A stretch of DNA of 64,000 bases from Terriglobia bacterium (lineage in GTDB: Bacteria > Acidobacteriota > Terriglobia > Terriglobales > Acidobacteriaceae). The DNA is taken from the NCBI GenBank assembly GCA_963823085.1, contig CAWGKF010000016.1, positions 126,824 to 190,823 on the forward strand, in the 5' to 3' direction. How positions within the stretch are numbered: position 1 is the first letter of the stretch; every line of letters starts with the position of its first letter. The position numbers and the translations under genes are program-made. The notes below the pieces were generated by a model. That model was given only the letters and a program-made list of their open reading frames with translations, was not told the DNA's origin and did no database searches. Positions 6,283 through 50,716 of this stretch are shown one piece after another.

Positions 6283-6370
6283 AGAAAGGTTTTTCCATCC
6301 TGAGCGACGCAGACCAGACCGGTCCGACGCCGTCGAAGGATCCCGACCAGTATTTCGGATGCGGAGGGAA

Positions 6371-23110: not shown

Positions 23111-23986
23111 TCAGACGTAGACTTCCGGAATGAAGTTCTGTTCGTGGATAGGCGGTCTGACGTATTTGGTCTTGTCCAGAGGCGGCAGTTTGAGCCGTTG
23201 CGGCGTCAGATCCTGATAGGGAATCAGGGACAAGAGATGGCGAGCGACATTGAGCCGTGCACACTTCTTGTTTTCGGCGTTCACCACGTACCAGGGCGCC
23301 TGCTTGATGTCAGTGAGAGCGAACATCTCGTCCTTCGCCCGCGAGTATTCCGCCCAACGCCGCCGTGACTCCAGATCCATGGGGCTGAGTTTCCAGCGCT
23401 TTGTGGGGTCGTTCATGCGGTCTTGAAAGCGACGCTCCTGTTCCTCGTCGCTCACGGAGAACCAGTATTTGATGAGGATGATACCGGCGCGCACCAGCAT
23501 GCGCTCAAACTCCGGGCAGCTATGCAGGAACTCCAGATACTCGGCCTCGGTGCAGAAGCCCATGACGTGCTCGACGCCGGCGCGGTTGTACCAGCTGCGG
23601 TCAAAAAGCACCATCTCGCCAGCGGCCGGCAAATGGGCTACATAGCGCTGAAAATACCATTGCGTCTTCTCGCGTTCGGTAGGCGTGCCCAAAGCCACTA
23701 CACGGCAGATACGGGGATTCAGCGTCTGGGTAATCCGCTTGATGGCGCTGCCTTTACCTGCAGCGTCGCGGCCTTCGAAGAGGATCACGACCTTCAGGCC
23801 TTTGTGGCGAATCCATTCGTGAAGCTTGACCAGTTCGAGTTGCAGGCATCCAAGTTCCTGCTCGTAGTCGCAGTCTTTGCCCAGGCGCAGGGGCTTTGAG
23901 GATTTTGTGCCAGCTGTGATCGGTTCCGTAATCTTCACGGTATCGACACGGACTTTCTCACTGGTTAGAGCACGCTTCTCCGCCAT
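23111..23986 (-). CDS. ppk2: Polyphosphate kinase 2 (single-domain PPK2)
   Basis: 'VVILFEGRDAAGKGSAIKRI' Walker A, 'FDRSWYNRAGVE' and 'WYFQRY' are PPK2 signatures. Confidence 0.9.
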   Translation of the reverse strand: MAEKRALTSEKVRVDTVKITEPITAGTKSSKPLRLGKDCDYEQELGCLQLELVKLHEWIRHKGLKVVILFEGRDAAGKGSAIKRITQTLNPRICRVVALGTPTEREKTQWYFQRYVAHLPAAGEMVLFDRSWYNRAGVEHVMGFCTEAEYLEFLHSCPEFERMLVRAGIILIKYWFSVSDEEQERRFQDRMNDPTKRWKLSPMDLESRRRWAEYSRAKDEMFALTDIKQAPWYVVNAENKKCARLNVARHLLSLIPYQDLTPQRLKLPPLDKTKYVRPPIHEQNFIPEVYV

Positions 23987-24408
23987 ATCATCACCTTCGG
24001 CGAACCCCGAGCGTGCGTCAGGTTGTGGAATGTCTGGCTGAAATAAAGTTTGGAGGGAGATTCCCGAAACGGGATGGCTTTTCGTGTGCGAACGTCGATT
24101 GGGGTATCCCCCCTCCCCCTCGGGTCCCCGGAATCATTGAGTTAGCGGGAAATCGCAAAGTAATCTATGGGGCTCAATCACTTGCGGGCAAAATCTTGGT
24201 TTCAAAGAACTTAGTAGCAAGAATTGCAATGAATTTGCAATGACAATTCCCAGAACGGGACCTAATGCGTACTCGGCGCACCGTCTCCGCTTCAGCGATG
24301 ATCGCCGATATGGAAGTCTGTGCGCAAGGTCAGACGTCACAAGGGGCTGTGGGAAACCGCACTTTGGACGGTAGCGATCGGAGCGGCCCGATACTTCCGG
24401 GCCGCTGT

Positions 24409-24433
24409 ACAGCCGAGGGCGGCTGTCGCCACA
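24409..24433. repeat. Hairpin repeat, family C copy 1 (ACAGCCG-AGGG-CGGCTGT + CNCCACA)
   Basis: acagccgagggcggctgtcgccaca is near-identical to the copies at 24809 and 24942. It is preceded by another hairpin (agcggcccg/cgggccgct, 24382-24406). Confidence 0.6.
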
Positions 24434-24476
24434 ACTTTCCGAATGGGTCTACCATCTGCGGCGAAATACGACCACT

Positions 24477-24540
24477 GGGGCTGAAGCCCGCGTTGATTTC
24501 GCTGCTTTTACGCGGCCCTCAAAGGGCCGCTCTTCCACGG
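24477..24540. repeat. Short interspersed repeat, family D copy 2
   Basis: ggggctgaagcccgcgttgatttcgctgcttttacgcggccctcaaagggccgctcttccacgg shares its ends and an internal GC hairpin with 22014-22075. Confidence 0.5.
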
Positions 24541-24808
24541 TTTTGCATGCGGTGGGGGTGAAAGTTGTAATTACAGGCTCGTAAGCTTTTCTATAGTCCC
24601 CCCATGACTTGGTTCTTCTTTTTCGTGACTCGCTTGCGCCGTGGGAATTCTTTCGGCCCTTTGGCGGGCCAGGGGATTGTTCCGAAGTTTGCGGTTGCCA
24701 CGTTTTCGCAAAGCGGGATTTCATGGGCACGCATTATTGTGGCGCTTCATTCCTGAATGACTAAACTGAAACGACCGACACGTGCGCCAGGTAAGGCTGG
24801 GGTGATGA

Positions 24809-24832
24809 ACAGCCGAAGGCGGCTGTCCCGCA
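24809..24832. repeat. Hairpin repeat, family C copy 2
   Basis: acagccgaaggcggctgtcccgca. Confidence 0.6.
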
Positions 24833-24868
24833 TGAACGTGCTCTAGATCCAACTCTCTTAGTACGCGC

Positions 24869-24912
24869 GAGATCCCTCTCTTCGCCTGAAAAACGGCTCC
24901 GTTCGGGATGAC
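24869..24912. repeat. Family A repeat, single arm (…GAGATCCCTC…TCGGGATGAC)
   Basis: The reverse complement, gtcatcccgaacggagccgtttttcaggcgaagagagggatctc, matches the arms at 28514 and 32547. Confidence 0.6.
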
Positions 24913-24941
24913 GCCGTGCGTGGAGGTCCATGGCGCGCTGG

Positions 24942-28777: not shown

Positions 28778-30451
28778 ATGGATCTCAAGCACATCAGTCG
28801 CGGAATTACCGAAGGGCGGTCGCGCGCGGGCGCTCGCTCCATGTACAAAGCGGTTGGATTCACCGATGCGGACCTCAGCCGTCCGTTGATCGGCGTGGCC
28901 AATACGTGGATTGAAACCATGCCCTGCAACTTCCACCTGCGCCGTCTTTCCGCAAAGGTGAAGGAAGGCATTCGCGCCGCGGGAGGGACGCCGATGGAGT
29001 TCAACACCATCGCGATCTCCGATGGAGAGACGATGGGGACCGAGGGCATGCGGGCGTCGCTGGTCAGCCGAGAACTGATCGCCGACTCGATCGAACTCGT
29101 CTGCCGTGGGCAGATGTTTGACGCCGTGGTGTGCGTGGTGGGATGCGATAAGACGATTCCGGCCGCGGCCATGGCGCTGGCTCGCATGAATCTTCCGGGT
29201 GTAGTGCTCTACGGCGGGACGATCGCGGCCGGCAGCTATCGCGGGAAGGACGTCACGATTCAGGACGTGTACGAAGCCATTGGTGCGAATCTGGCGGGGA
29301 AGATGTCGGACTCCGAACTGAAGGAATTGGAAGATGTCGCCTGCCCTGGGGCGGGTGCTTGTGGCGGCCAGTACACGGCCAACACGATGTCGACGGTGAT
29401 GGAGATGATCGGGCTGTCGCCGATGGGATTCAACAGCGTGCCAGCGATGGATGCGCAGAAGGATCAGGTTTCGTTCGATTGCGGCAAGATCGTGATGAAT
29501 GTGCTGCAGCAAGGGCTGAAGCCCCGCGACATTCTCACGCGCGAAGCGTTCGAGAACGCGATCGCATCGGTTGCTGCGTCGGGCGGCTCGACGAATGCTG
29601 TTTTGCATCTACTTGCAATCGCGCGGGAAGCTGGAGTCAATCTTGAGATCGATGATTTCCAAACCGTCAGCGAGCGGACTCCATTTCTGGCTGATCTGAA
29701 GCCTTCGGGCAGATTCGTGGCTGCCGACATGCACCGTGCAGGCGGCATTCGACTGCTTGCGAAGCGCTTGATGGATGGGAAGTATCTGCACGGCTCGGCG
29801 AAGACCGTGACCGGGCTAACAATTTCGGATGAGGCGAAGGGCGCGACCGAGACTGCGGGGCAAGAAGTGATCGCGCCGCTCAACAAGCCGTTGAAAGCCA
29901 CCGGCGGACTGGTGATCTTAAAAGGCAATCTTGCCCCCGAAGGCTGCGTGGCGAAGATCAGCGGGCACGAACGTCTCGAGCAACGCGGGCCGGCACGCGT
30001 CTTCGACTCGGAAGAAGACGCCATGGCCGCTGTCACTGCAAAGAAGATCAAAGCAGGAGATGTGGTCGTGATCCGCAACGAAGGCCCAAAGGGTGGACCG
30101 GGAATGCGCGAAATGCTCGGAGTTACTGCGGCACTCGTTGGGGAAGGTTTGGGCGAATCGGTGGCGCTGCTCACCGACGGACGTTTCAGCGGGGCCACGC
30201 GCGGGCTAATGGCTGGGCATGTCTCCCCCGAAGCGGCGCTGGGAGGTCCGATCACCGGGGTTCGCGATGGCGACATGATTCGATTCGACGTACGGCAGCG
30301 CATCCTGGAAGTCGAAGTCAATGACGATGAGTTGCGCAAACGCATGGCACAGTGGAGAGCGCCGCAGCCGCACTATTCGACAGGAGTGTTCGCGAAATAC
30401 GCCGCGCTGGTTTCGTCGGCGTCGCAGGGAGCGATCACCAAGCCGAACTAG
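28778..30451 (+). CDS. ilvD: Dihydroxy-acid dehydratase
   Basis: '[11 protein letters not shown]', '[15 protein letters not shown]' and '[11 protein letters not shown]' are IlvD signatures. Confidence 0.95.
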
Positions 30452-31152
30452 CCCGTTGTGGTGATCTTCTTCAGCGCTTTTTCGAGATCGTCTGGCTTGA
30501 ATCCAAAAGGACCGGGCTTGCTCTTGTAGGCGACCCGGTTCTTCTGGTCAATCAGGTAGATTCGGTCCGGCCAACCGGTGTAGGCGGCCTCCGTCGAGTT
30601 GTCGAATCCGTCGATGACTGCGGGAAACTTGATCCCCAACTTGCGCACGCAGCTTCCGGCTACCTGGCTGCGCTCCTCGAAATCTTTAGGGCTGGCAAAA
30701 ACGACCTTGTCCTTCAGATTGCTCTGCGTCTGCCAAACGTCGCTCGGGTGGGCTTCCACGATGTAGACAATGAGGAAAGCGACCTGCTGGTTGTATTGAT
30801 CGTAGAGCTTGTTGAGAGCGGGAACCTCCCGCCGAAACGGCGGTCAAGTGTAGCTGCCGAAGACAAGTACAACAGGTTGTGTCGAGGTGAGCGAGGACAG
30901 TTGCACGTTCGCGGATTTGTCGAGCTTGATCAGCGAGAAATCTGGCGCAGGATCGCCAGCCTGCAAGTGTCCGGCACGAGCGTGCATCCACATGGTTTCG
31001 AATGGGACCACGAAGAAGGTCGCATCCGGCACGTGCTTCATGACCCGGCCAAACGTCTCTGGAGACTGGTGCATCGCCCACCAGATCAGCCCGACAAACG
31101 AGACGTAGAGAACTGCCACGACAAGCGCTGTTCGGAGAAGATACTTCGCCAT
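30448..31152 (-). CDS. Membrane-anchored iodothyronine-deiodinase-like thioredoxin-fold protein with in-frame TGA (candidate selenocysteine) at 30844-30846
   Basis: The two track ORFs (30844..31152 and 30448..30759, extended upstream) share one frame and are separated only by a TGA. Read-through gives [47 protein letters not shown]-terminal TM segment [23 protein letters not shown]. Confidence 0.65.
30818..30832 (-). promoter_or_regulatory. Candidate bacterial SECIS apical hairpin
   Basis: mRNA: UGA-N11-GCGGG-AGGUU-CCCGC. The stem is 5 bp of G/C pairs, the loop contains GGU, and the loop starts 16 nt after the UGA. Confidence 0.4.
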
Positions 31153-31297
31153 AGATGGGACGGAATCATACCGGAAAGTTTCTCGGCAGACCGTAATGTA
31201 AAGGCACTATCAGCGGCAAAGCAGGCTTGCCAGGCTGTGTTAGATTAGGTCGTCGATTCTGGGGTCGTCCCGGCTAAAGTCGGGCGAAAACAATACA

Positions 31298-37371: not shown

Positions 37372-38643
37372 GTGAATATAATCGACGGCCATAAAAAAGA
37401 CGCCCGCAGCCTACGGATTCCGTGCGCGACGATCGTTATCATTCTTGCGGCAGTTTGCGCGATTTCATCTGGCTGCACTTCGGCCGATTCCAAACAGCAG
37501 AAGGCTCAGGCAGCCGGGCCTCCACGAGCAGTTTCCGTGGCGGTGGCACCTGTCATGAAGCAGGATGTCCCGGTGTATCTGTCGGGGCTGGGGTCCGTGA
37601 CTGCGTTCAACACGGCGAATATCAAAAGCCGCCTGGATGGGCAAATCATGAAGGTGAACTTCCGCGAAGGGCAGGAGGTCCGTGAGGGAGACCTGCTGAT
37701 TCTAATCGACTCCCGGCCGTACGAGGTGCAGGTGGAGCAGTTGCAGGCAGCGCTGTTTCGGGACCAGGCGCAGTTGCGCGATGCCAGGCTGAATCTGGAG
37801 CGGTACACATCGTTAATTCCGTCGGGCAGCATTGCGCAGCAGCAGGTGGACACGCAAAAGGCGCTGGTGGATCAACTCGACGGCACCGTGCGCAACGATC
37901 AGGGGCAGATTGACGCGGCAAAATTGAATATCGTCTATTGCCATATTATGGCGCCGTTTAACGGGCGAGTCGGATTGCGGCAAGTGGATCCGGGAAACAT
38001 TGTGCACGCAGCGGATACGAATCCGATGCTGATCCTGACGCAGCTTCAGCCTATCGCGGTGATCTTCACACTTCCGGAAGATGTTCTGCCAAGAGTCGCG
38101 CAGCAGATGGCGCATGGAACTCTTGAGGTGGATGCGCTCAGCCGTGATGATCAAACCAAACTGGGGACCGGAAAGCTGCTGACCATCGATAACCAGATCG
38201 ATCCGACGACCGGGACGGCAAAACTGAAGGCCGTATTCGATAACAGAGACAACCAACTTTGGCCGAACCAATTCGTGAATGCGAACTTGTTATTGGAGAC
38301 GCGGAAGAACAGCACGGTGGTGCCGACGGCGGCAATTCTGCGGGGGCCGCAAGGGACGTACGTTTATTCAGTGAATACGGATAAGACGGTGCAAGACAAG
38401 TCCGTAACAGTCGCGCTGACGCAAGGCGACAGTACGGTAGTGACGGAGGGAGTAAACCCCGGAGACATGGTGGTCACTGACGGGCAGGACAAGCTGCAAC
38501 GAGGCAGTCACATCGAGCCACGAAATACTGGCACGAACAGGGGGGTGGGAACGTCCCCGGCCCGCGGGCGTCAGGCGGCGGGTGGTTCGAACTCGGCGGG
38601 AAGTTCGAGGTATGCCGGGCAATCCGGTAATTCAGGGTCATGA
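37372..38643 (+). CDS. mdtA: RND efflux periplasmic adaptor (MdtA-like), lipoprotein
   Basis: Lipobox AISSGC plus coiled-coil and beta-barrel adaptor pattern. Its stop overlaps the next start (ATGA). Start is GTG 37372. Confidence 0.8.
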
Positions 38644-41600
38644 GTCCTTCGCGATTATTTATTCTCCGGCCGGTTGCGACTACGCTGCTGATGGTCGGAG
38701 TGTTGCTCGTGGGCTGGGTTGCATTCATGCAACTGCCGGTCTCGGCACTTCCAGAAGTTGACTATCCCACAATCCAAGTGGTGACGTTTTATCCGGGCGC
38801 CGATCCGGACGTTATGGCGTCGTCGGTGACGGCTCCGCTGGAGCGACAATTCGGGCAAGTGCCTGGCCTGAGCCAGATGACCTCGACCAGTTCCTACGGC
38901 AGTTCGGTCATCACCCTGCAGTTTGGTCTCGATCAAAATATTGACGTTGAAGAACAGCAGGTGCAAGCGGCGATCAACTCAGGATCAACGTACCTGCCCA
39001 CGGATCTGCCGAATCCACCGATTTACAACAAGGTGAATCCTGCCGACGCGCCGATTCTGACTTTGGCGCTGACATCGGACTCGCTACCGCTATCGAAGGT
39101 CGAGGATCTCGCGGACACGTCTCTGGCGCAGAAGATCTCGCAGTTGCCCGGTGTGGGGCTCGTGTCCATCAGCGGCGGACAAAAGCCGGCGGTAAGGATT
39201 CAGGCAAATCCGACAGCGCTGGCTTCATACGGGCTGAGCCTAGAAGACCTGCGGGCGGCCCTGGCGCAGGCGAACGTAGATCAGGCGAAGGGCGTGATCG
39301 ATGGTGCGCGCCAGTCGTATACCATCGGCGCAAACGATCAGCTTTTCTCAAGCGAGCAATACAAGCCAATTGTGATTGCCTATCACAACGGCGCGCCGGT
39401 GCGAATCAGCGACGTGGCCAACGTGATCGATGGCACGGAAAACAACCAGCTTGCGGCGTGGATGAATCTGACGCCGGCCGTGATCGTGAACATCCAGCGG
39501 CAGCCGGGAGCCAACATCATCAGCGTGGTGGACCGGATCAAGAAATTATTGCCGCAGTTACAGGCATCGCTGCCGACTGCAGTCAAGGTGCAGATCCTGA
39601 CCGACCGGACCACAACAATTCGGGCTTCGGTAAAAGACGTTGAGTTCGAGCTGATGCTGGCCATCGGCCTGGTTGTGATGGTGGTGTTTCTGTTCCTGAG
39701 GAACCTGTCGGCCACGGTGATTCCCAGTGTTGCGGTGCCCCTGTCGTTGATTGGCACGTTTGGTGTGATGTACCTGCTGGGGTACAGCCTGAATAACCTG
39801 ACGCTAATGGCGCTGACAATTTCTACAGGGTTTGTGGTGGACGATGCCATCGTCATGATCGAGAACATCGATCGCTTCCTCGAGGCGGGCGACTCGCCGC
39901 TGGATGCGGCGTTGAAGGGATCGAGCCAGATTGGATTCACGATCATCTCGCTGACTGTTTCGCTGATCGCCGTGCTGATCCCGCTGCTCTTCATGGGCGA
40001 CATCGTCGGCCGGTTGTTCCGCGAATTTGCGATGACGCTGGCGGTAACGATTCTGGTCTCGGCGGGGGTTTCGCTCAGCCTGACGCCGATGATGAGCGCC
40101 AAGCTGCTCAAACATCGCAAAGAAGGCGAGCGCGGACGCTTTTACGACATAACGGAGAATTACTACAACCGCATCATTGCCTTCTATGGCCGCACGGTGA
40201 AGCTGGTGCTGAAGCACCAACCGGCCACTTTGTTTGTGACAGCTGCGACGCTGGTACTGACTCTGTTCTTGTATGTGATCGTGCCGAAGGGATTTTTTCC
40301 GGTGCAGGACACGGGCGTAATTCTGGGTGTCTCGCAGGCTCCGGACTTCGTCTCGTTCGATGCGATGTCGCAGCGGCAGCAGGAATTGGCGAAAGTCATC
40401 CTGAAGGATAAAGATGTGGAGAGCCTGTCATCGTTTATCGGGGTCGACGGCACCAATACAACACCGAATGAAGGACGAATTCAAATCAACCTGAAGCCGC
40501 GCGACGAGCGGAAGGATGACGCGTCGGCGATCATACGGCGGCTGCAGCCGGCGTTGGCAAAAGTCGACGGTATTACGCTGTACATGCAGCCGGTGCAGGA
40601 CTTGACGGTAGAAGACCGAGTGAGCCGGACGCAGTTCCAGTATTCGATCGAAGATGCGGATGCGCAGGAGCTGGCGCAGTGGACTCCGAAGCTAGTTGCG
40701 AAGCTGCAGACTCTTCCGGAGTTGCGGGACGTAGCGACAGACCAGATGAATAACGGGCTGAGAACCAACGTCACCATCGACCGTGACACCGCTTCGCGGC
40801 TGGGGATCTTTCCACAGGCGTTCGACAACACGCTCTATGACGCGTTCGGGCAGCGACAGGTTTCGACGATTTTTACGCAGCTGAACCAGTATCACGTGAT
40901 TCTGGAAGTACTACCGAATTTCGCGCAGGATCCCGCCGACCTCAGAGACATCTACATAAAGCCGAGCGTGGTTACGGCGAACACGGGGGCACCAACGGCG
41001 AATGGAGCGGCGGTCACGACCAGCGGAGCGCCCGTGCCGATCTCGACATTCACGCGCATGAAGTCCGAGCGCACCTCGCTGGCAGTGAATCATCAGGGAC
41101 AATTTCCGGTGGTGACCTTGTCATTCAACCTGGCGCCCGGAGGTTCGCTGGGAGATGCGACCAAGGCGATACAGCAGGCCGAGAAAGAAATACAACTGCC
41201 GCTCAGCATCCATGCTTCATTTCAAGGCACAGCGGCGGCCTTCCAGAATTCTCTGGCGACCGAGCCTTTCCTGATTCTGGCAGCGGTGATCACGGTTTAC
41301 ATCGTGCTGGGCGTGTTGTACGAGAGCTACATCCACCCGATAACGATTCTTTCCACACTGCCTTCGGCCGGGGTGGGCGCAATTCTGGCATTGATGATTA
41401 CGGGGAACGATCTGACCGTGGTGGCACTTATAGGGATCATTCTTCTGATCGGCATTGTGAAGAAGAACGCCATCATGATGATCGATTTCGCGCTTGAGGC
41501 CGAGCGCGTCGAGCATAAGCCGCCAGAGGAAGCCATTTATCAGGCTTGCCTGCTCCGCTTCCGTCCGATCATGATGACGACCATGGCGGCCCTGTTGGGA

Positions 41601-41807
41601 GGACTGCCGCTTGCTCTGGGTACAGGCACGGGGGCTGAGTTACGGCGGCCGCTGGGTATCACGATCGTGGGCGGATTACTGTTGAGCCAGTTGCTAACGC
41701 TGTACACCACGCCGGTGGTTTATTTGTGGTTCGACCGGGTGGCGCAAAGATTTTCTCGTTACCGCATCGGCAACGAGATTCCTCCGGAGCCGATGTCGGC
41801 GGACTGA
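38640..41807 (+). CDS. mdtB: RND multidrug efflux permease, MdtB-like
   Basis: From memory, the N-terminus '[16 protein letters not shown]...[23 protein letters not shown]' is nearly collinear with E. coli MdtB. 1055 aa, 12-TM RND architecture. Confidence 0.85.
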
Positions 41808-41844
41808 GGCTGATTGGACACGGACTAGGCATACTGATTGAACG

Positions 41845-44800
41845 ATGAGTATTTCGGCTCCATTTATTCGCAGACCGATCGGCACGTCGCTGTTGGCGGC
41901 GGCGTTGCTGCTCTCGGGAATCCTCGCGTTTAATTTCCTGCCGGTCGCATCGCTTCCGCAAATGGATTTCCCGGTGATCAGCGTAGGGGCAAGTTTGCCG
42001 GGAGCCGATCCGCAAACGATGGCGTCGGCGGTGGCAACGCCGCTGGAACGCCAGTTTGGGCGCATTGCCGCCGTGAATCAGATGACGTCGTCGAGCCAGC
42101 TGGGCAGTACTGGCATCGCGATGCAATTCGATCTGAACCGGAATATCGACGCTGCGGCTCGCGACGTACAGGCTTCGATCAATGCGGCCCGCAGCCAGCT
42201 ACCGGCAAACCTGCCAAGCAATCCGACATACCGCAAAGTAAATCCGGCGGACGCGCCCATTTTATTGCTGGCGTTGACCTCAGATACGTCGACCGTACCG
42301 CAGATGTACGACGCCGCGGATTCGATTCTGTCGCAGAAGTTGTCGCAGGTCCAGGGAGTCGGGCAGGTTTTTGTGTGGGGCGCGTCCCAGCCAGCGGTGC
42401 GCGTGGAAGTCAATCCGACTTTGTTAAACAAGCTTGGAGTCGGCCTGGATACCGTCCGGAACGCGCTGAATGCCGCCAATGCGAACCATCCGAAGGGCAA
42501 AGTTACGAGCGGCTCGATGGTGTATACGTTCAGCGACAACGACCAGTTGTTTACGGCAGATCAGTACAAGCCATTGATTGTGGCCTACAACAATGGCGCG
42601 GCGGTGCGACTCAGTGATGTGGCCACGGTTCAGGATGCGGTCGCTGACTTACGAAACCTGGGGCTGGTGAACGGCACGCCGGGTATCGTGATACCTATCT
42701 TCCGGCAACCGGGAGCGAACATCATTGATACGGTGGACCGGGTCAAGTCGCTGTTGCCGTATTTGCAGTCCTCGATTCCTCCCTCGATCCATCTTTCGGT
42801 TTTGATGGACCGCACGACGACGATTCGCGCCTCGGTGAAAGATATCGAGGGCACGCTGCTGATTTCGATCGTACTCGTGATTCTGGTGGTATTCGTCTTC
42901 CTCCGCACAGTACGAGCAACGATCATTCCGAGCATCGCGGTGCCCCTGTCGCTGGTTGGCACTTTCGGGGTGATGTATCTGCTCGGGTACAGCCTCGACA
43001 ATCTCTCGCTGATGGCCCTGGCAATTTCCACCGGCTTTGTTGTGGACGACGCGATTGTGGTGCTGGAAAACATTACGCGCTATGTGGAACAGGGCATGGA
43101 TGTTGTGCGAGCGACCTTCAAAGGGGCGGCCGAGATTGGATTCACAGTCCTTTCGATGAGCACGTCTCTGGTGGCCGTATTCATTCCGCTGCTGATGATG
43201 GGCGGCATCGTGGGACGTCTTTTCCGCGAATTTGCGGTTACGCTTAGTACTGCGATCGGGGTTTCTCTCGTGGTTTCGCTGACGACGACGCCGACGATGT
43301 GCGCGAAATTCCTGAGGTCCGCGAAGACCGAAAAGCACAATATCTTCTATCGAGCCAGCGAATGGTGTTTCGACCGGATTCTGGCCATCTACAGCCACGC
43401 TCTGAGGTGGGTCCTCGCGCACCAGCCGGTGACCGGGGTGGTGACCATTGCAGTCGCGGTGCTGAGCATTTTCCTCTACTTCAAAGTGCCGACGGGCTTC
43501 TTTCCGCAGCAGGACACAGGGCGAATTCAGGGAACGGTGATTGGAGCGCAGGACATCTCGTTCCAATCTATGAGCGACAAGATCAAGCGGTACGCCAGCA
43601 TTGTGATGAAAGATCCTGCGGTCGACACCATGGGCGGTTTTACAGGTGGAGGCAGCGCTTTGAATCAGGGCCGGTTCTTCGTGATGCTGAAACCGCTGGA
43701 GGAGAGGGGCCCATGCCAGAAACAGCACTTCTGGGAGCCTTGCCATTATGCGTCCGCCGATGACGTGATCAACCGGCTGCGCGGCAAGCTGGCGGTGGTG
43801 CCGGGCGCGACCCTGATTTTTCAGTCGGCGCAGGAGCTCACCATTGGCGGCCGGTGGGGCAACGCACAATATCAATACACGCTGCAAAGCGCGAACCTTG
43901 ACGATCTGAACACTTGGTCACCGCGCCTGCTGGACAAGCTCAGGACGCTGCCGGAGTTACGGGACCAGAACTCCGACCAGCAGGACAAGGGATTGCAGGC
44001 GAAGCTGGTGATCGATCGGGATACGGCGAGCCGACTGGGGATCACGCCGCAGACTCTCGACAATGCTCTTTATGACGCGTTCGGGCAGCGCCAAGTTTCT
44101 ACCATGTACCGGCCGCTGAACCAGTATCACGTGGTGATGGAAGTTGCGTCGCAGTTCCAGCAGACGCCCGAGGCACTGCAGAATATTTATTTGAAGTCGA
44201 CGACAGGAACGCCAATTCCGCTGGCGGCGTTCACGCATTTCGAACCATCGAACACCCCGCTGGCGGTCAACCACCAGGGGCAATTGCCTTCGGTGACAAT
44301 CTCGTTCAACCTGGCACCGGGCATTTCTCTGGGGCAGGCGACGGACGCCATTGAAAGAGCCGAGCGCACGATCGGATTTCCTCCAAGCATCCAAGCCAGC
44401 TTTCAGGGAACGGCCGCCGCTTTCCAGGATTCCCGTTCCAACATGCTGGTCCTTATCATCACCGCGCTCGGCGCTGTCTACATTGTGTTGGGTATGCTGT
44501 ACGAGAGCTATATCCATCCAATTACGATTCTTTCGACGATTCCTTCCGCTGGCGTAGGAGCTCTGCTGGCGCTGCTTTTGACGCATAACGAGCTCAACGT
44601 GATCGGGATGATCGGCATCATCCTCTTGATCGGCCTGGTGAAGAAGAACGCGATCATGATGATCGACGTTGCGCTGGAAGTGGAACGCAATCAAGGCAAG
44701 AAGCCCGTCGAGGCGATTTATGATGCCTGCCTCCTGCGCTTCCGGCCCATCATGATGACGACGATGGCTGCGCTGCTAGGTGGCCTGCCACTGGCGTTGG

Positions 44801-45012
44801 GGCACGGTACGGGATCGGAACTGCATCGTCCGCTGGGCATCACGATTGTGGGCGGATTGATTGTGAGCCAGGCGCTCACGCTTTTCACGACACCTGTGGT
44901 GTATGTATATCTGGATCGTTTGAGACTTTTGCTGCGCGGTGGAGCGGATACGGCGCTGCCCGATACTTCTGCGCCAGCGGGTCCCCATCCCTCTCCAGCG
45001 CACGGGGATTAA
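41845..45012 (+). CDS. mdtC: RND multidrug efflux permease, MdtC-like
   Basis: From memory, 'FIRRPIGTSLL...LPVASLPQMDFPVISVGASLPGADPQTMASAVATPLERQFGRIA' is collinear with E. coli MdtC. 1055 aa. Confidence 0.85.
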   Translation: MSISAPFIRRPIGTSLLAAALLLSGILAFNFLPVASLPQMDFPVISVGASLPGADPQTMASAVATPLERQFGRIAAVNQMTSSSQLGSTGIAMQFDLNRNIDAAARDVQASINAARSQLPANLPSNPTYRKVNPADAPILLLALTSDTSTVPQMYDAADSILSQKLSQVQGVGQVFVWGASQPAVRVEVNPTLLNKLGVGLDTVRNALNAANANHPKGKVTSGSMVYTFSDNDQLFTADQYKPLIVAYNNGAAVRLSDVATVQDAVADLRNLGLVNGTPGIVIPIFRQPGANIIDTVDRVKSLLPYLQSSIPPSIHLSVLMDRTTTIRASVKDIEGTLLISIVLVILVVFVFLRTVRATIIPSIAVPLSLVGTFGVMYLLGYSLDNLSLMALAISTGFVVDDAIVVLENITRYVEQGMDVVRATFKGAAEIGFTVLSMSTSLVAVFIPLLMMGGIVGRLFREFAVTLSTAIGVSLVVSLTTTPTMCAKFLRSAKTEKHNIFYRASEWCFDRILAIYSHALRWVLAHQPVTGVVTIAVAVLSIFLYFKVPTGFFPQQDTGRIQGTVIGAQDISFQSMSDKIKRYASIVMKDPAVDTMGGFTGGGSALNQGRFFVMLKPLEERGPCQKQHFWEPCHYASADDVINRLRGKLAVVPGATLIFQSAQELTIGGRWGNAQYQYTLQSANLDDLNTWSPRLLDKLRTLPELRDQNSDQQDKGLQAKLVIDRDTASRLGITPQTLDNALYDAFGQRQVSTMYRPLNQYHVVMEVASQFQQTPEALQNIYLKSTTGTPIPLAAFTHFEPSNTPLAVNHQGQLPSVTISFNLAPGISLGQATDAIERAERTIGFPPSIQASFQGTAAAFQDSRSNMLVLIITALGAVYIVLGMLYESYIHPITILSTIPSAGVGALLALLLTHNELNVIGMIGIILLIGLVKKNAIMMIDVALEVERNQGKKPVEAIYDACLLRFRPIMMTTMAALLGGLPLALGHGTGSELHRPLGITIVGGLIVSQALTLFTTPVVYVYLDRLRLLLRGGADTALPDTSAPAGPHPSPAHGD

Positions 45013-45236
45013 TTGGCGATCCCGGACCGCGCCCAACTCCTGGCCCCCGAGGCCCCAGTACAACCCCGCCGGAGAACTGCCGCATCGCAGAGAGGAAGCC
45101 GATCGGCTGCGCAAAAAAGCATTCGTCCCGTATGATAGGAAGCACGAATAGTGCTGCAGGGAGCGGCTCAATTCTGAAGACGCCCGGCAGATCAGTGTTT
45201 CCAATTTGTTTTCGACAATTTCTTGAGGAGTCAAGG

Positions 45237-46325
45237 ATGCTAAAGAAAGCAGCAGCTGTCATGCTGGTTTGCGCAAGCATGGTCGCCTGGGTGGGATGTG
45301 GCACGACGAGCAACCGATATCTGTACGCGTCGATTCCAGGAGCCAACGAAATTGTGGCGTTTCGCGAGGACCCCAATTCGGGCGCTTTGGTTCAGTTGGT
45401 GGGCAGCCCGATTACAGCGGGACAAGCGGTTCAATCGCTCGCGCTTCATCCATCGAACAAATTCCTGTACGCCGCAAACTCTGGAGCCACGCCGACGGGC
45501 ACGATCTCGTTGTTCGACATTTCGAATGGAGGCGCACTGACGGAACATACTCCGCGGGTAAACGCAGGGACGGCACCAACTTTGCTGGCCATGGATCCAT
45601 CCGGAAAATATTTGTACGTGGCGAATTCGGGATCGTTCGACATCTCGGTGTTTTTGATTGATCCAACGCATGGATTGCTGACTCCGGTAGCACAAACAGG
45701 AGGCGCTACCGCAGGAATAGGCCTGTCAGCGTTGAACATGGCACTTTCGCCATCGGGAAGTATGCTATTTGTCACTGGGCAGAATGGGACGCAGGGATAT
45801 ATCGAAGAGTTTACCGTGACGAACGGTGTTCTTGGCATCAAGCCGGGTTCGGGCACGCCGTTTATCACGGGCAACGGCCCTTACGGCCTGGCGATCGACC
45901 CCAGTGGGGCGCACCTTTACACGGCGAACAAGATCGATAATAGCATTTCGGCATTTTCCATCGGCTCTTCCGGAAACCTCACATTAATCTCCACGATCGG
46001 CGAGACATATACGGGACCTGTTTCACTGTTTATCGACAAGTCCGGAAAGTACCTGTATGTGGCGAATCAGCAGAGTGCGGGAAATCTAGCCGCATATTCG
46101 ATCGGATCGGACGGCGGTCTGACGCTGCTGGCGACTTCTCCATTCGCGACGGGCCCGCAGCCGAATTTCATTGCTGGCGATGCGAGTGGGGATTACCTAT
46201 TCGTAGGAAACCAGTCCACAACGGCGATTCAATCGTTCAGCCTCGCTCCGAGCACGGGGACGTTGACCTCGGTTTCGACGTATGGCGTTCCGGGTACGCC
46301 CACTTCGATCGTAATCACACACTAA
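45237..46325 (+). CDS. Lipoprotein, 7-bladed beta-propeller lactonase family
   Basis: GAGGAG RBS and lipobox WVGCG. Repeated 'P..l.l.PsGkyLYvAN' blades (HPSNKFLYAAN, DPSGKYLYVAN, DPSGAHLYTAN, DKSGKYLYVAN). Confidence 0.8.
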   Translation: MLKKAAAVMLVCASMVAWVGCGTTSNRYLYASIPGANEIVAFREDPNSGALVQLVGSPITAGQAVQSLALHPSNKFLYAANSGATPTGTISLFDISNGGALTEHTPRVNAGTAPTLLAMDPSGKYLYVANSGSFDISVFLIDPTHGLLTPVAQTGGATAGIGLSALNMALSPSGSMLFVTGQNGTQGYIEEFTVTNGVLGIKPGSGTPFITGNGPYGLAIDPSGAHLYTANKIDNSISAFSIGSSGNLTLISTIGETYTGPVSLFIDKSGKYLYVANQQSAGNLAAYSIGSDGGLTLLATSPFATGPQPNFIAGDASGDYLFVGNQSTTAIQSFSLAPSTGTLTSVSTYGVPGTPTSIVITH

Positions 46326-46340
46326 GAATTTGTGAGGGAA

Positions 46341-47927: not shown

Positions 47928-48977
47928 ATGCAAATTGCCAGCGCCGCAAGCGCGTTTCCTGAACATTACTACTCACAGAAATTCCTTTTGGAAAAATTGC
48001 AGGAGTATTGGGGTGACCAGCTGCGCAATCCACAGATGCTGGCGCGACTGCACCGAAACGTAGCCGTGGAGGGCCGTCATCTAGCCTTCCCGCCGGAACA
48101 ATATTACGAAATGAAAACCTGGGGATGCGCAAATGATGCATGGATCCAGGTTGCGCAGGAATTGGGCGAGCAGGCGCTGTGCCGGGCTCTGCATCATGCG
48201 GGCCTGGAACGGGGTAATTTGGGCGCCTTGTTTTTCACTTCCGTTACGGGGATATCGAGTCCGTCGATTGACGCATTGCTGATCAATCGCATGGGACTCT
48301 CTCCGAACATCAAACGTGTACCGATCTTCGGCCTGGGATGTGTCGCAGGAGCAGCGGGGATCGCCCGGGCTGCGGATTACGTGCGGGCTTATCCGAAGCA
48401 ATCGGCGGCGCTGGTTTCTGTAGAGCTTTGCTCACTGACGATCCAGCGCGAAGATCTTTCGGTTGCGAATCTTATTTCTTCGGGGCTGTTCGCGGATGGA
48501 TCTGCGGCTGTGATCGTGACGGGAGACGATGTGCCGTCTGAGGGCCCGGAGATTGTGGCAACACGTTCCGTCTTCTATCCCAATACTGAGCAGATGATGG
48601 GATGGAAGGTCAGCGAGAAGGGCTTCCGGATTATCTTGTCGCCGGAGGTGCCAGTCCTGATCCGCGAGAATCTCGGCAAAGACATGGACGCGTTTCTTGC
48701 GGACAACGGATGCACTCGTGCCGACATTGGAAGCTGGGTGCTACACACGGGCGGTCCGAAGGTGCTCGAGGCGACCGCGGATGCACTCGATCTGCACAAC
48801 GGACAGCTGGATGCGTCGTGGGATTGCTTGAAACGCGTGGGAAATCTATCGTCGGCGTCCGTGCTAGTCGTTCTGGAAGATGTGATGAGGAACCGGCGTC
48901 CGGAACCGGGCACGATGGGCGTGCTGGCGGCGATGGGGCCGGGATTTTGTTCGGAGCTCGTACTTCTGAAGTGGTGA
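47928..48977 (+). CDS. Type III polyketide synthase (chalcone/stilbene synthase superfamily)
   Basis: Catalytic triad contexts: GLGCVAG (Cys), LHTGGPKVL (His) and GNLSSASVL (Asn). Confidence 0.9.
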   Translation: MQIASAASAFPEHYYSQKFLLEKLQEYWGDQLRNPQMLARLHRNVAVEGRHLAFPPEQYYEMKTWGCANDAWIQVAQELGEQALCRALHHAGLERGNLGALFFTSVTGISSPSIDALLINRMGLSPNIKRVPIFGLGCVAGAAGIARAADYVRAYPKQSAALVSVELCSLTIQREDLSVANLISSGLFADGSAAVIVTGDDVPSEGPEIVATRSVFYPNTEQMMGWKVSEKGFRIILSPEVPVLIRENLGKDMDAFLADNGCTRADIGSWVLHTGGPKVLEATADALDLHNGQLDASWDCLKRVGNLSSASVLVVLEDVMRNRRPEPGTMGVLAAMGPGFCSELVLLKW

Positions 48978-48987
48978 GGATTTAGTT

Positions 48988-50097
48988 TTGGTGACCTCGA
49001 CCGATGTATTTGTAATTGGCGGAGGACCTGCAGGCCTAGCGGCGGCGATCGCAGCACGGCAGCGTGGATTTCGCGTGATGGTGGCTGATGGCGCCGGAAT
49101 GCCGATCGACAAGCCGTGCGGGGAAGGGCTGATGCCGGACGGTCTGGCGGCGCTTGAGGAACTTGGCGTGTCTGTGGAAGAGCATCATTCGTTCCCGTTT
49201 CGAGGAATTTGTTTTGCGAGCGCAGGGTTTGCGGTGAAGGCTGCATTTCCGCACGGAGCGTTGGGCAGGGGGGTGCGACGAAGTGTTCTGCATCCGCTGA
49301 TGGCGGAACGGGCAGCGAGTTTGGGGATCGATCTGTTGTGGCAGACGCCGGTGACGGGTATTTCCGAAGAGGGCGTGAGGATTGGAGATCACACCATCAA
49401 GGCGCGGTGGATCATTGGCGCGGATGGCGGGAATTCGCGGGTACGGCGCTGGACAAATCTGGATGAGTTTCGCGAGAGAGATTGCCGTTACGCATTCCGG
49501 CGGCACTATCGAGTGGCACCCTGGAGCGACCACATGGAATTGCACTGGGGGCGGCACGGAGAGATTTATGTTACTCCGGTAGCGAAAGATCAGGTGTGCG
49601 TGGCGTTGATATCACGCAATCCTAAATTGCGATTAGACGAGGGGCTGACGTTGTTTCCTGAGTTGCAAGCACGGTTGAGCGGAGCCGAATTTGCTTCTTC
49701 CGAAAAGGGCGCGCTTTCCGCTACTTGCAGGCTGCGAAAGGTAAGCCGCAGAAATGTGGCGTTGATCGGGGACGCCTCTGGTACCGTGGACGCGATCACG
49801 GGAGAAGGTTTGTGCCTGGCGTTCAGTCAGGCGATGGTACTGGCGGAGTGTCTGGAGAGTGGAGACCTGGCACGATACGAGCGGGAGCATCAGCGATTAG
49901 CATTGCGGCCCCGGCTGATGGCGCGATTGATGCTATTGCTGGATGGACGACCGAGGCTGCAACGGCGCACGCTGCAGGTATTCCAAAAGCGTCCGTCGAT
50001 TTTTGAGGGGCTACTGCAGTTGCATGTTGGCGTGCTTTCTCCGCTGCACCTGGCGGTGGATGGTCTGAGTCTGGGTTGGGGGTTGCTCACCGTCTAA
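48988..50097 (+). CDS. NAD(P)/FAD-dependent oxidoreductase (geranylgeranyl-reductase / flavoprotein monooxygenase-like)
   Basis: 'DVFVIGGGPAGLAAAIAARQRG' dinucleotide fold, 'KPCGEGL', and 'LIGDASGTVDAITGEG'. Starts 10 nt after the PKS stop. Confidence 0.85.
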   Translation: MVTSTDVFVIGGGPAGLAAAIAARQRGFRVMVADGAGMPIDKPCGEGLMPDGLAALEELGVSVEEHHSFPFRGICFASAGFAVKAAFPHGALGRGVRRSVLHPLMAERAASLGIDLLWQTPVTGISEEGVRIGDHTIKARWIIGADGGNSRVRRWTNLDEFRERDCRYAFRRHYRVAPWSDHMELHWGRHGEIYVTPVAKDQVCVALISRNPKLRLDEGLTLFPELQARLSGAEFASSEKGALSATCRLRKVSRRNVALIGDASGTVDAITGEGLCLAFSQAMVLAECLESGDLARYEREHQRLALRPRLMARLMLLLDGRPRLQRRTLQVFQKRPSIFEGLLQLHVGVLSPLHLAVDGLSLGWGLLTV

Positions 50098-50098
50098 G

Positions 50099-50716
50099 AT
50101 GGGCACAAGTCGACGCAATCAAGAACAATTTATTTCGCGATTCCTGTGCACGGCGGCCGTGCTGCTGGCGATCGTGCTTCCCAGCGCGGCACAGGAACGG
50201 GAGTTTCAGCTGGATCCGGCGCAGACTTCAGTGACATTCACGCTGGGCGATGTGCTGCACACGGTGCGCGGGACGTTCAAGCTGAAGCACGGAGATTTGC
50301 TCATCGAACCGGCAGGCAAAGTGTCGGGAGAAATTGTCGTCGACGCAAAGAGTGGCGATAGCGGCAGCGGAATGCGCGACCACAAGATGAACAAAGAAGT
50401 GCTCGAGAGCGACCGTTATCCGGAAATTTCATTTCGGCCCGATCGCATTGAGGGACCGGTGGCAAATTCAGGCAAATCAGCAGTGACGGTTCATGGGATG
50501 TTTAACGTCCACGGAGTGGACCATGAGATCACCGTGCCCGCAGAAGTCGACATGGGCGCGGATCGATGGACCGCGACTGTGCACTTCACCGTTCCCTATC
50601 AGAAGTGGGGGATGAAGAATCCCAGTACTTTGTTTTTGCGGGTTAACGATTCGGTGGAGATCGATGTTGTAGCGTCGGGTAGCCTGGCGGCGCACGCGGC
50701 TATTTCCGGTCAGTAG
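50099..50716 (+). CDS. Periplasmic YceI-family (lipid/polyisoprenoid-binding) protein
   Basis: Signal peptide present. 'LDPAQTSVTFTL...HTVRGTF' and 'YPEISF...G.F..HGV' are YceI signatures. Starts 1 nt after the previous stop. Confidence 0.85.
   Translation: MGTSRRNQEQFISRFLCTAAVLLAIVLPSAAQEREFQLDPAQTSVTFTLGDVLHTVRGTFKLKHGDLLIEPAGKVSGEIVVDAKSGDSGSGMRDHKMNKEVLESDRYPEISFRPDRIEGPVANSGKSAVTVHGMFNVHGVDHEITVPAEVDMGADRWTATVHFTVPYQKWGMKNPSTLFLRVNDSVEIDVVASGSLAAHAAISGQ

Follow-up and report, generated by a model that had tools for sequence, protein, structure and literature searches.

The minus strand of the analysed DNA (the window, i.e., the whole 64 kb stretch) carries, in our view with high confidence, one intact gene whose product is a selenocysteine-containing protein of the iodothyronine-deiodinase (PF00837) family. 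The in-frame TGA of this gene very probably encodes selenocysteine (Sec), judging from the codon column in orthologues, from selection on the sequence that follows and from a conserved hairpin just past the codon. The features to which the text refers are the following:

30448..31152, minus strand: probable deiodinase-like selenoprotein gene, complete; 234 codons including one UGA, plus a TAG stop
31150..31152, minus strand: ATG start codon, the first start of the ORF; orthologues start at the equivalent M(A/R)K...
31072..31140, minus strand: N-terminal hydrophobic segment, residues ~5-27, a predicted single membrane anchor (Kyte-Doolittle)
30466..30972, minus strand: thioredoxin-fold deiodinase catalytic domain, residues 61-229 (Pfam match, PDB sequence matches, Foldseek)
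30844..30846, minus strand: UGA codon 103, the putative selenocysteine codon, in the motif FGSYT-U-PPF; it aligns with Sec170 of Dio3
30816..30833, minus strand: bacterial SECIS-like hairpin GGCGGGA-GGU-UCCCGCU(C), overlapping the codons R-R-E-V-P-A
30739..30756, minus strand: E133-A-H135-P-S-D138 motif, aligned with Glu200/His202 of the proposed Dio3 proton relay and invariant in the family
30649..30651, minus strand: Cys168, candidate resolving cysteine, invariant in 52/52 aligned family members
30352..31248, plus strand: antisense shadow ORF of 298 aa that is no gene; it exceeds each fragment of the real gene in length

The first-pass annotation had described two minus-strand ORFs that share one frame and are separated only by TGA, and this description is borne out by both the translation and the ORF list. 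The upstream fragment (30844..31152, 102 aa) has an ATG start and ends with ...VLVFGSYT, while the downstream fragment lies in the same frame past the TGA; the block quoted in that annotation, VLVFGSYT-[TGA] with the residues that follow, matches the translation exactly. Read from 31152 to 30448, the locus is one frame of 234 sense codons, in which the TGA at 30846..30844 (codon 103) is the sole internal one and the terminal TAG lies at 30450..30448. The N-terminus and the length of the product are kept in orthologues. On the plus strand, the ORF at 30352..31248 was chosen by a naive gene caller and can mislead gene callers, yet it was rejected as a gene, since both the Pfam match and the pattern of conservation by codon position belong to the minus strand. 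The window holds 17 in-frame TGAs with long open frames on either side, and only the one at 30844..30846 is strongly coding-like on both sides and not antisense to a called gene. A second selenoprotein gene was not found in the window, all other candidates being antisense shadows of called genes.

When the codon at the Sec column was compared across 44 orthologous loci of Acidobacteriota genomes, TGA was found in 41, TGC in two and TGT in one. The paralogous branch holds Cys at the same column, and 22 Cys forms occur among the best 120 database proteins. Whether the column has TGA or Cys codons in orthologues had been proposed as a check, and the argument that a random nonsense mutation would be unlikely to hit exactly the Sec/Cys codon gains from the result. 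An unrelated residue at this column had been named as counter-evidence: none is present in the 44 orthologous loci, but rare relatives do have Arg (CGA) or Gly (GGA) there. The dN/dS ratio, also proposed as a check, is 0.18 for the part upstream of the TGA and 0.14 for the part downstream; by this measure the region 3' of the TGA evolves as protein, and purifying selection on it is no weaker than on the 5' part.

These data bear directly on the possibility that the locus is a pseudogene, i.e., an originally Cys-encoding deiodinase-like gene killed by a nonsense mutation, from which the N-terminal 102 residues or nothing would be made. A stop within the frame counts formally as a lesion, two fragments are reported by public pipelines, the Sec machinery was not found in the 64 kb window and three of 42 orthologues are frameshifted. 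Against this, the same TGA is kept in 41 species-level genomes at ~55-86% protein identity, the downstream dN/dS is low (as given above), the hairpin after the TGA is conserved with frozen synonymous sites, and strain-level relatives (99.8% and 97% identical DNA) have the TGA and the frame intact with no further lesions, as has the window itself. The pseudogene reading is in effect refuted by the conservation data, and we regard it as extremely improbable. Slightly less remote, though still very improbable, is UGA read-through that is free of selenium, either by a reassigned code (TGA = Trp or Gly) or by near-cognate suppression with Trp or Cys. It draws on the database itself, where 50 of the best 120 homologues are deposited with W at the Sec column and a few with G. 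However, the W of P0001, located on a ~1 kb contig, is TGA at the DNA level under alternative-code translation (the other 49 W forms are presumed to be alike), and the G form that was checked at the DNA level is a real GGA codon. Moreover, 12 of the 44 other genes in the window end normally at TGA, for which reason genetic codes 4 and 25 were rejected; Trp or Gly in place of the thioredoxin-fold nucleophile would be inactive, and homologues have Cys; and relatives have tRNA-Sec and selABD in linkage with the gene.

This linkage was found in four orthologue-bearing genomes, one of them a cultured Tunturiibacter strain, in which the gene adjoins selD-selA-selB and tRNA-Sec; in some genomes it lies within a selD-selA-selB/tRNA-Sec/formate dehydrogenase (FDH) island. 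The selD, selA and selB genes beside the orthologue score above NCBIfam equivalog cut-offs, and the tRNA-Sec was called by ARAGORN and by Rfam RF01852. None of selA, selB, selD and tRNA-Sec lies within the 64 kb window, which was searched for sel genes over its whole length by tblastn with the proteins of a related genome (L036); of the 45 genes crudely called in the window, Pfam was run on about 22. We infer the Sec trait for the window's own genome.

The selenocysteine reading also finds a candidate signal in the mRNA. Across the clade, a hairpin of the form GGCGGGA-GGU-UCCCGCY, with a 6-7 bp stem and a GGU apical loop, begins 10-11 nt past the UGA, and its nucleotides are nearly invariant among orthologues, wobble positions included. 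The hairpin region has the lowest synonymous diversity among 106 five-codon windows, and 95% of cells in the alignment of orthologues are paired, vs 58-67% when the pairing pattern is slid. Compensatory changes were seen in L022 (G-C to A-U) and in L010, L037 and L040 (G-C to C-G), although the covariation support is thin, with one or two independent compensatory events, the hairpin being so conserved. Its architecture matches the FDH SECIS of L036, and it is missing from the Cys forms. The element is best described as a SECIS-like hairpin of bacterial type and a putative SelB target. Rfam reported no SECIS family at the site, whether at gathering or at permissive thresholds, which is uninformative. 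The minimum-free-energy hairpin directly 3' of the UGA (CCGCCG-UUU-CGGCGG) was rejected as a candidate, its Pro wobble positions varying freely among orthologues; the whole-region z-score around it is -0.25.

Mis-annotation of such genes as fragments had been predicted, and it is what the public records contain: in ENA the gene is called as two pieces of 103 and 102 aa, and JGI calls render the TGA as Trp. In the databases the gene and dozens of its orthologues stand as two fragments, as a stub of the C-terminal part or under the name 'peroxiredoxin' with an active-site Trp. The signature of a conserved UGA followed by 10 nt and GGCGGGAGGUUCCCGC would let annotation pipelines mend such entries.

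Membership in the deiodinase family is indicated by sequence and structure. With Cys placed at the TGA, the product scores 113.7 bits against Pfam T4_deiodinase (PF00837; cut-off 27), residues 61-229 matching profile positions 71-235 of 237, far above the threshold of the very model suggested for this comparison. Its best PDB sequence matches are 4TR3 (mouse Dio3; 1e-22) and 9H48 (Dio2; 4e-21), ~17 orders of magnitude better than ResA, and in the alignment it is collinear with both, through the Dio-specific insertion. The earlier claim that the block is collinear with the deiodinase active site stands, the TGA being aligned with Sec170 of mouse Dio3. For the structural comparison, the natural Cys orthologue P0045 stood in for the window protein; the AF2 model of P0045 (pLDDT 95.5) has 9H48 and 4TR3 as top Foldseek matches (TMt 0.82 and 0.80). 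NCBIfam NF038285 (deiodinase_rel) gave 197.4 bits, below its cut-off of 250, and was matched only at positions 177-340 of the 347-position model, which suits the TPR-fused Cys paralogues.

The active site reads P93-VVLVFG-S100-Y-T-U103-P-P-F, with Ser at -3, no Pro at -7 and no Cys at +3. The proton-relay residues of Dio3 are Ser167, Thr169, Tyr197, Glu200, His202 and His219 (PMC11592359), and the alignment shows five of the six to be kept here (S100, T102, Y130, E133 and H135), His219 being replaced by the invariant Pro155. In the thyronine site, the Dio3 Arg275 clamp, His219 and Phe258 correspond to Pro213, Pro155 and Pro195, which vary little or not at all across the bacterial clade. Since the thyronine-binding residues are prolines here, thyroid hormone is not expected as a substrate; the replacements argue against an iodothyronine substrate, not against family membership. 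Cys168 occupies a position different from those of Cys239 and Cys168 of Dio3 in the alignment.

An N-terminal transmembrane anchor had likewise been claimed, and a hydrophobic segment is indeed seen at residues ~5-27. Of 43 orthologues, 40 have a Kyte-Doolittle mean above 2 over 19 residues at the N-terminus and the other three are truncated or frameshifted sequences; the AF2 model of the Cys-form orthologue has a long N-terminal helix. More Lys and Arg residues flank the segment on its N-terminal side than on its C-terminal side (3.6 vs 1.7), and this K/R-rich N-flank suggests an N-in orientation with the catalytic domain out, which would probably face the periplasm.

Given the lack of thyronine-binding residues, one may ask whether the protein, as a genuine selenoprotein, is a dehalogenase or instead a peroxiredoxin-like peroxidase or an extracytoplasmic ResA/TlpA-like thiol-disulfide oxidoreductase. 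The latter is a serious possibility, to which we give appreciable weight short of even. The Pfam families Redoxin and AhpC-TSA are secondary matches above their cut-offs (40-44 bits), ResA/DsbE and Bcp are the next-best Foldseek matches of the orthologue model, the Ser at -3 from Sec resembles the (T/S)xxC motif of Prx, and neither His219 nor Arg275 of the thyronine site is conserved. Furthermore, the Dio mechanism has itself been termed peroxiredoxin-like (PMC11592359), and a generic redox role was put forward for the bacterial family as early as 2005 (PMC1088965). On the other hand, there is no CxxC, the site being U-P-P-F here and C-x-P-F across the wider family; deiodinases outscore every Prx or ResA match, in sequence as well as in structure; and the Dio-specific insertion is kept together with most of the proton relay.

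For the probable selenoprotein encoded here, the following sequence of events may be proposed. SelB-GTP-Sec-tRNA(Sec) would bind the in-ORF SECIS hairpin, so that Sec is inserted at the UGA, and the product would be a 234-residue protein composed of the N-terminal membrane anchor and the thioredoxin-fold catalytic domain, probably periplasm-facing. The single selenolate of Sec103 would attack an electrophilic atom of the substrate, as in deiodinases, assisted by the conserved network of Ser100, Thr102, Tyr130, Glu133 and His135. Cys168 would then resolve the oxidised selenium (Se-X or Se-OH), giving a selenenyl-sulfide that is reduced again by a thiol reductant. As to the substrate, our guess is deiodinase-type reductive dehalogenation of small halogenated aromatics, although hydroperoxide or disulfide reduction is given equal weight and other reactions only a little less. 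The exact active site (T-U-P-P-F / Y-I-x-E-A-H-P-S-D-x-W) is common to the clade and the animal deiodinases. It is a speculative and rather unlikely proposal that the Terriglobia clade represents an extracytoplasmic Se-dependent reductive dehalogenase for the natural iodo-, bromo- and chlorophenolics of acidic organic soils, and thereby the animal enzymes' counterpart in prokaryotes and perhaps their evolutionary origin; if true, soil selenium availability would be tied to halogen (iodine) cycling.

The genes around the locus offer no hint of function: no conserved neighbour or redox partner is common across synteny groups, and the recurring neighbours (ilv, beta-propeller and Big_2 genes only) recur in close relatives only. 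About 17 kb from the gene lies a pair encoding a type III PKS and an FAD-oxidoreductase; a link to this pair was dismissed as coincidence, as it recurs in one other locus only (L041). The promoter and terminator scan detected nothing above shuffles. For twenty years no function has been assigned to bacterial deiodinase-like selenoproteins. The clade occurs widely among soil Acidobacteriota and has an animal-type catalytic network without the thyronine-binding residues, and cultured Tunturiibacter strains carry the gene in a selDAB-selC-FDH island, beside the Sec machinery, which makes the enzyme experimentally tractable and a functional experiment feasible. Tunturiibacter gelidiferens X5P2 and T. 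psychrotolerans X4BP1 are cultured carriers.

Several known systems invite comparison. With the BCP/PrxQ peroxiredoxins and with ResA/TlpA/DsbE the protein has in common a thioredoxin fold in which helix alpha1 carries the nucleophile at its N-terminus, and those proteins, too, are often anchored or exported; the Pfam and structural matches to them are weaker. Unlike them, it has no CxxC and lacks the Pro found at -7 in the Prx PxxxTxxC motif; it also bears the Dio-specific insertion, and its scores to Prx/ResA are far below those to deiodinases (Pfam 40-44 vs 114 bits). The Cys-containing acidobacterial paralogues (NF038285 'deiodinase family protein', L043-L080) have the same catalytic domain (VFGSYT-C-P-N-F...YIREAH) and co-occur with the Sec form in the same MAGs, e.g., L012 with L054, but they differ in having Cys for Sec and a long TPR-like N-terminal region for the short anchor, at 36-48% identity.

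Like vertebrate Dio1-3 (4TR3, 9H48), the protein combines a single N-terminal membrane anchor with a thioredoxin fold bearing the Dio-specific insertion, and it keeps the FGSxT-U-PPF and Y-I-x-E-A-H-P-S-D-x-W motifs with the Ser/Thr/Tyr/Glu/His relay residues; identity to the Dio structures is 29-30%, with a TM of ~0.8 that comes from the Cys orthologue model. It departs from Dio1-3 in that it lacks the proximal and the distal Cys (168 and 239 of Dio3) and has another invariant Cys (C168), and in that the SECIS here is a short in-ORF bacterial hairpin, whereas the Dio SECIS is a 3'-UTR kink-turn element.

The closest precedent is the prokaryotic 'deiodinase-like protein' selenoprotein family, introduced from the Sargasso Sea by Zhang, Fomenko and Gladyshev in 2005 (PMC1088965), for which a bacterial SECIS has already been described (PMC1088965, PMC13188914) and which was still uncharacterised in reviews of 2022 and 2026 (PMC9312934, PMC13188914). 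The original members came from marine metagenomes, whereas the present clade belongs to soil and peat Acidobacteriota (Terriglobia) and has an N-terminal membrane anchor and a conserved linker of ~40 residues. The reviews tabulate the motif UxxC (PMC9312934, PMC13188914), while the present clade has U-P-P-F, as in animals, and no Cys at +3 was found in the best 150 family representatives. PF00837 homology, an in-frame UGA in the active site, Cys homologues, a bacterial-type SECIS hairpin that lies just 3' of the UGA and has a G in its apical loop, and a presumed redox role are common to both, and the gene of the window is a further member of this bacterial selenoprotein family, known since 2005.

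The deiodinase-like gene lies in one minus-strand frame, and its antisense strand carries a long open frame:

31152..30448, minus strand: deiodinase-like gene, one frame of 234 sense codons and a terminal TAG
30846..30844, minus strand: internal TGA, codon 103, the sole in-frame interruption
30844..31152, minus strand: N-terminal piece in the ORF table, 102 aa, ATG start
30352..31248, plus strand: antisense shadow ORF, 298 aa, spanning the entire selenoprotein gene

The C-terminal piece is in the identical frame in the ORF table, and the protein block quoted around the TGA in the first-pass annotation matches the translation exactly, so that its observation of two ORFs split by TGA is confirmed. 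The mis-annotation it foresaw is found in the ENA gene calls, which cut the gene into 103 + 102 aa; the shadow ORF exceeds each real-gene fragment in length and is preferred by a naive length/GC3-based caller. At the N-terminus of the protein there is a hydrophobic helix, and because K/R residues are more frequent in its N-flank than in its C-flank (mean 3.6 vs. 1.7), the positive-inside rule suggests N-in topology with the predicted catalytic domain outside. In several members of the wider family the anchor is replaced by cleavable signal peptides.

Is the TGA a codon or a lesion? Scanning bacterial genomes, one per species, gave 80 related loci, nearly all from Acidobacteriota (Terriglobia, 'Ca. 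Sulfotelmatobacter', Acidobacteriaceae, Bryobacteraceae), with Tunturiibacter psychrotolerans X4BP1 and T. gelidiferens X5P2 as cultured carriers. Codon x of the motif FGS(Y/F)T-x-PPF, present in 44 loci, is TGA in 41, TGC in two and TGT in one, i.e., the choice between Cys and TGA on which the first-pass annotation had focused. The other 36 loci form a paralogous branch with Cys in the motif VFGSYT-C-P-N-F and a TPR-like N-terminus, corresponding to NCBIfam NF038285; in this branch (L043-L080, VFGSYTCPNFR...YIREAH; e.g., L057 of Acidobacteriaceae bacterium KBS 96) the TPR-like region is long. Cys paralogue and Sec form coexist in one MAG in two cases (L012 with L054, L040 with L049). Among TGA-bearing orthologues pairwise dN/dS comes to 0.18 before the TGA and 0.14 past it; the downstream half is therefore translated as protein. 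The window's exact IlvD protein is encoded on three public contigs (nucleotide identity to the window 99.8% and ~97%), and in the two compared base by base, L086 and L087, the TGA is retained and the frame is unbroken. L086, the ENA contig with 97% identity, differs from the window by a DDE transposase between PPK2 and ilvC (L086:4020-5243 and 6347-7397), and its ilvC is called in two pieces (269 + 82 aa). Reassignment of TGA in the window organism was considered and rejected, as TGA terminates 12 of the 44 other called genes in the window.

In protein databases the best 120 homologues have 'W' at this column in 50 cases and C in 22, and about 40 are ~130-aa fragments starting just past it. 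The one W-form checked at the DNA level (P0001; L081:208-912, a ~1 kb contig) has TGA there, which an alternative code turned into W. Among JGI metagenome proteins (within P0001-P0063), dozens are titled 'peroxiredoxin' and read FGSYT-W-PPF; judging from that one DNA check, they look like a systematic database artefact hiding selenoproteins.

By the first-pass annotation, the reading of the TGA as Sec would be refuted by unrelated residues at the column, or by further lesions downstream, in relatives. Each of the 44 orthologous loci has either TGA or a Cys codon; both kinds of exception exist at low frequency:

L082:895-1548, L083:257-976, L084:97-816: two rare protein clusters with Arg (CGA) or Gly (GGA) at the Sec column, each one nucleotide from TGA
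L037:~1372-1770, L039:~2128-2520, L042:~10170-10283: single frameshifts, past which the conserved protein resumes in a new frame

The CGA and GGA variants, the latter seen in two independent samples, retain most of the conserved hairpin block (CGCCGGGAGGTTCCCGA / CGGCGGGAGGTTCCCGT); they look like recent Sec-loss and may be catalytically dead. The frameshifts, in three of 42 TGA-bearing sequences (41 loci and the window), may stem from indels in the assembly or from recent decay. Indel errors are common in long-read MAGs, from which two of the three come. MAG bin MFD03975.bin.2.179 has both a shifted copy (L037) and an intact one (L010).

The signal for Sec insertion appears to be a hairpin within the ORF. 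The MFE helix CCGCCG/CGGCGG directly after the UGA was rejected, as it is not conserved and its Pro wobble positions vary freely. The block CGG CGG GAG GUU CCC GCN is near-invariant even at third positions: the codons of R-R-E-V-P have an entropy of 0-0.5 bits, vs. ~1.5-1.9 bits in the remaining 4- and 6-fold codons, and normalised synonymous diversity of this five-codon window is 0.085, the lowest of 106 gene windows (median 0.73). It folds into a GC-rich stem of 6-7 bp beginning 10-11 nt past the UGA, with GGU in the apical loop; 95% of alignment cells pair, vs. 58-67% after shifting the 3′ arm by 1-3 columns. In the three orthologues of the Cys form the hairpin is missing, even in cases where they keep the peptide RRE-P. 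As an internal control served the formate dehydrogenase (FDH) alpha-subunit gene of T. gelidiferens, itself split by UGA, whose hairpin has the same architecture (7 bp stem beginning 11 nt past the UGA, loop GGUCU). A compensatory G-C to A-U change occurs in L022, and G-C to C-G in L010, L037, and L040 (RNAalifold variant with a bulged C); covariation is thin because the element hardly varies, and the case for a putative SECIS leans chiefly on its position, on the frozen synonymous sites and on its likeness to the FDH hairpin. No Rfam model matches the hairpin. By established bacterial Sec biology, it would be bound by SelB with Sec-tRNA(Sec), and Sec would be delivered to the UGA.

The machinery for this, proposed as a check, was found beside orthologues: the 64-kb window has no sel genes and tRNA-Ser(UGA) as its sole tRNA, but ARAGORN places tRNA-Sec ≤6 kb from the deiodinase-like gene in four loci (Rfam RF01852, 71-73 bits vs. 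threshold 47), which form a selenium island in T. gelidiferens X5P2 and an Edaphobacter MAG:

L036:5124-15897: selB-selA-selD on one strand, tRNA-Sec and deiodinase-like gene on the other, then the FDH-N operon
L034:4613-10660 and L042:4644-10675: selD-selA-selB immediately upstream
L035: tRNA-Sec near the deiodinase-like gene

The L036 proteins exceed the NCBIfam equivalog cut-offs (SelB 363 vs. 242 bits, SelA 503 vs. 268, SelD 368 vs. 125). The island order is selB-selA-selD, tRNA-Sec, deiodinase-like gene, fdnI-fdnH-fdnG, and fdnG has its own in-frame UGA. Acidobacteria are on record with a small selenoproteome (PMC1794560), and organisms with the island may have FDH and the deiodinase-like protein as their chief selenoproteins. 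We infer the Sec-decoding trait for the window's own genome.

The proposed deiodinase likeness is borne out by sequence and structure comparisons. With TGA read as Cys, the product scores 113.7 bits against Pfam T4_deiodinase (PF00837; E = 1e-32, gathering score 27), and just 40-44 bits against Redoxin and AhpC/TSA. Among all PDB sequences the best matches are mouse Dio3 catalytic domain 4TR3 (1e-22) and Dio2 9H48 (4e-21), with ResA third (2.6e-5); the product is collinear with Dio2/Dio3 across the deiodinase-specific inserted segment, and the TGA falls on Dio3 Sec170, as the claimed active-site collinearity demands. A very confident structure model (pLDDT 95.5, pTM 0.90) of the natural Cys-form orthologue P0045, 54% identical to the window protein, is nearest to Dio2 (TM 0.82) and Dio3 (TM 0.80; TM on target), and ResA/DsbE-type proteins rank lower. 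In the wider family (495 representatives at 50% identity, E ≤ 1e-30) the active site has a single Cys, with x-P-F after it, and in no case CxxC.

Residues of mouse Dio3 and their counterparts in the window protein, from the PDB-sequence alignment; roles from PMC11592359
Ser167: S100, conserved
Thr169: T102, conserved
Sec170: U103, conserved
Tyr197: Y130, conserved
Glu200: E133, conserved
His202: H135, conserved
His219: Pro155, invariant proline instead
Arg275 (thyronine carboxylate clamp): Pro213, invariant proline instead
Phe258: Pro195, invariant proline instead
Cys168 (proximal): Tyr101, absent
Cys239 (distal): Phe176, absent

From this pattern thyronine is predicted not to be the substrate. 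C168 in window protein numbering, aligned with neither Dio3 Cys168 nor Cys239, is invariant in 52/52 aligned family members. In a deiodinase-type cycle the selenolate of U103 would attack an electrophilic atom, C168 would resolve the Se-X or Se-OH intermediate to a selenenyl-sulfide, and a thiol reductant would reduce the latter. Two reactions seem about evenly plausible, reductive removal of halogen from small halogenated aromatics and reduction of peroxides or disulfides; we lean slightly to dehalogenation, since on each measure the protein is closer to deiodinases than to peroxiredoxins or ResA. An unlikely proposal is that the protein works outside the cytoplasm as a selenium-dependent dehalogenase of organohalogens in soil, with kinship to the ancestor from which animal deiodinases arose.

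Genomic context offers no functional clue. The gene is flanked by ilvC-ilvB-(ilvN-like)-ilvD on one side and by a beta-propeller protein, a Big_2/LVIVD protein and leuC-leuD on the other; this synteny is limited to the ~20 closest loci, and no gene family adjoins the gene across synteny groups. It looks monocistronic. The convergent ilvD (plus strand, ends 30451) overlaps its 3′ end (stop 30448-30450) by 4 nt, and no terminator-like element lies between them (window 30448-30451). Farther away, a type III polyketide synthase stands beside an FAD-dependent oxidoreductase (weak Trp_halogenase-like match, 26.9 bits) and a YceI-like protein (47928-50716, plus strand); a homologous PKS/oxidoreductase pair (L041:11192-13560) lies ~5 kb from a Cys-form deiodinase-like gene, and the linkage is probably coincidence, because it is seen in this one other locus only. 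A membrane-fusion protein gene and, after it, two tandem AcrB-type RND transporter genes (1055 aa each) occupy 37372-45012 (plus strand). Crude calling left 23986-24930 and 45012-46332 without a gene; for the equivalent of the former in relatives, ENA calls a 209-aa ORF without Pfam hit (L085:5478-6107).

The window gene belongs to an already known prokaryotic family, here from soil Acidobacteriota: the 'deiodinase-like protein' (PF00837) was reported in 2005 as a family of bacterial selenoproteins that comes in Sec and Cys forms and has a bacterial SECIS (PMC1088965), and reviews of 2022 and 2026 list it without known function (PMC9312934, PMC13188914). In the published accounts consulted of this family we did not find described the anchoring in the membrane, a SECIS of near-invariant sequence, the placement within a selDAB-selC-FDH island (cultured Tunturiibacter strains) or the animal-like U-P-P-F site. 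The clade of the window has U-P-P-F, as in animals, whereas the two reviews tabulate UxxC for the prokaryotic family.
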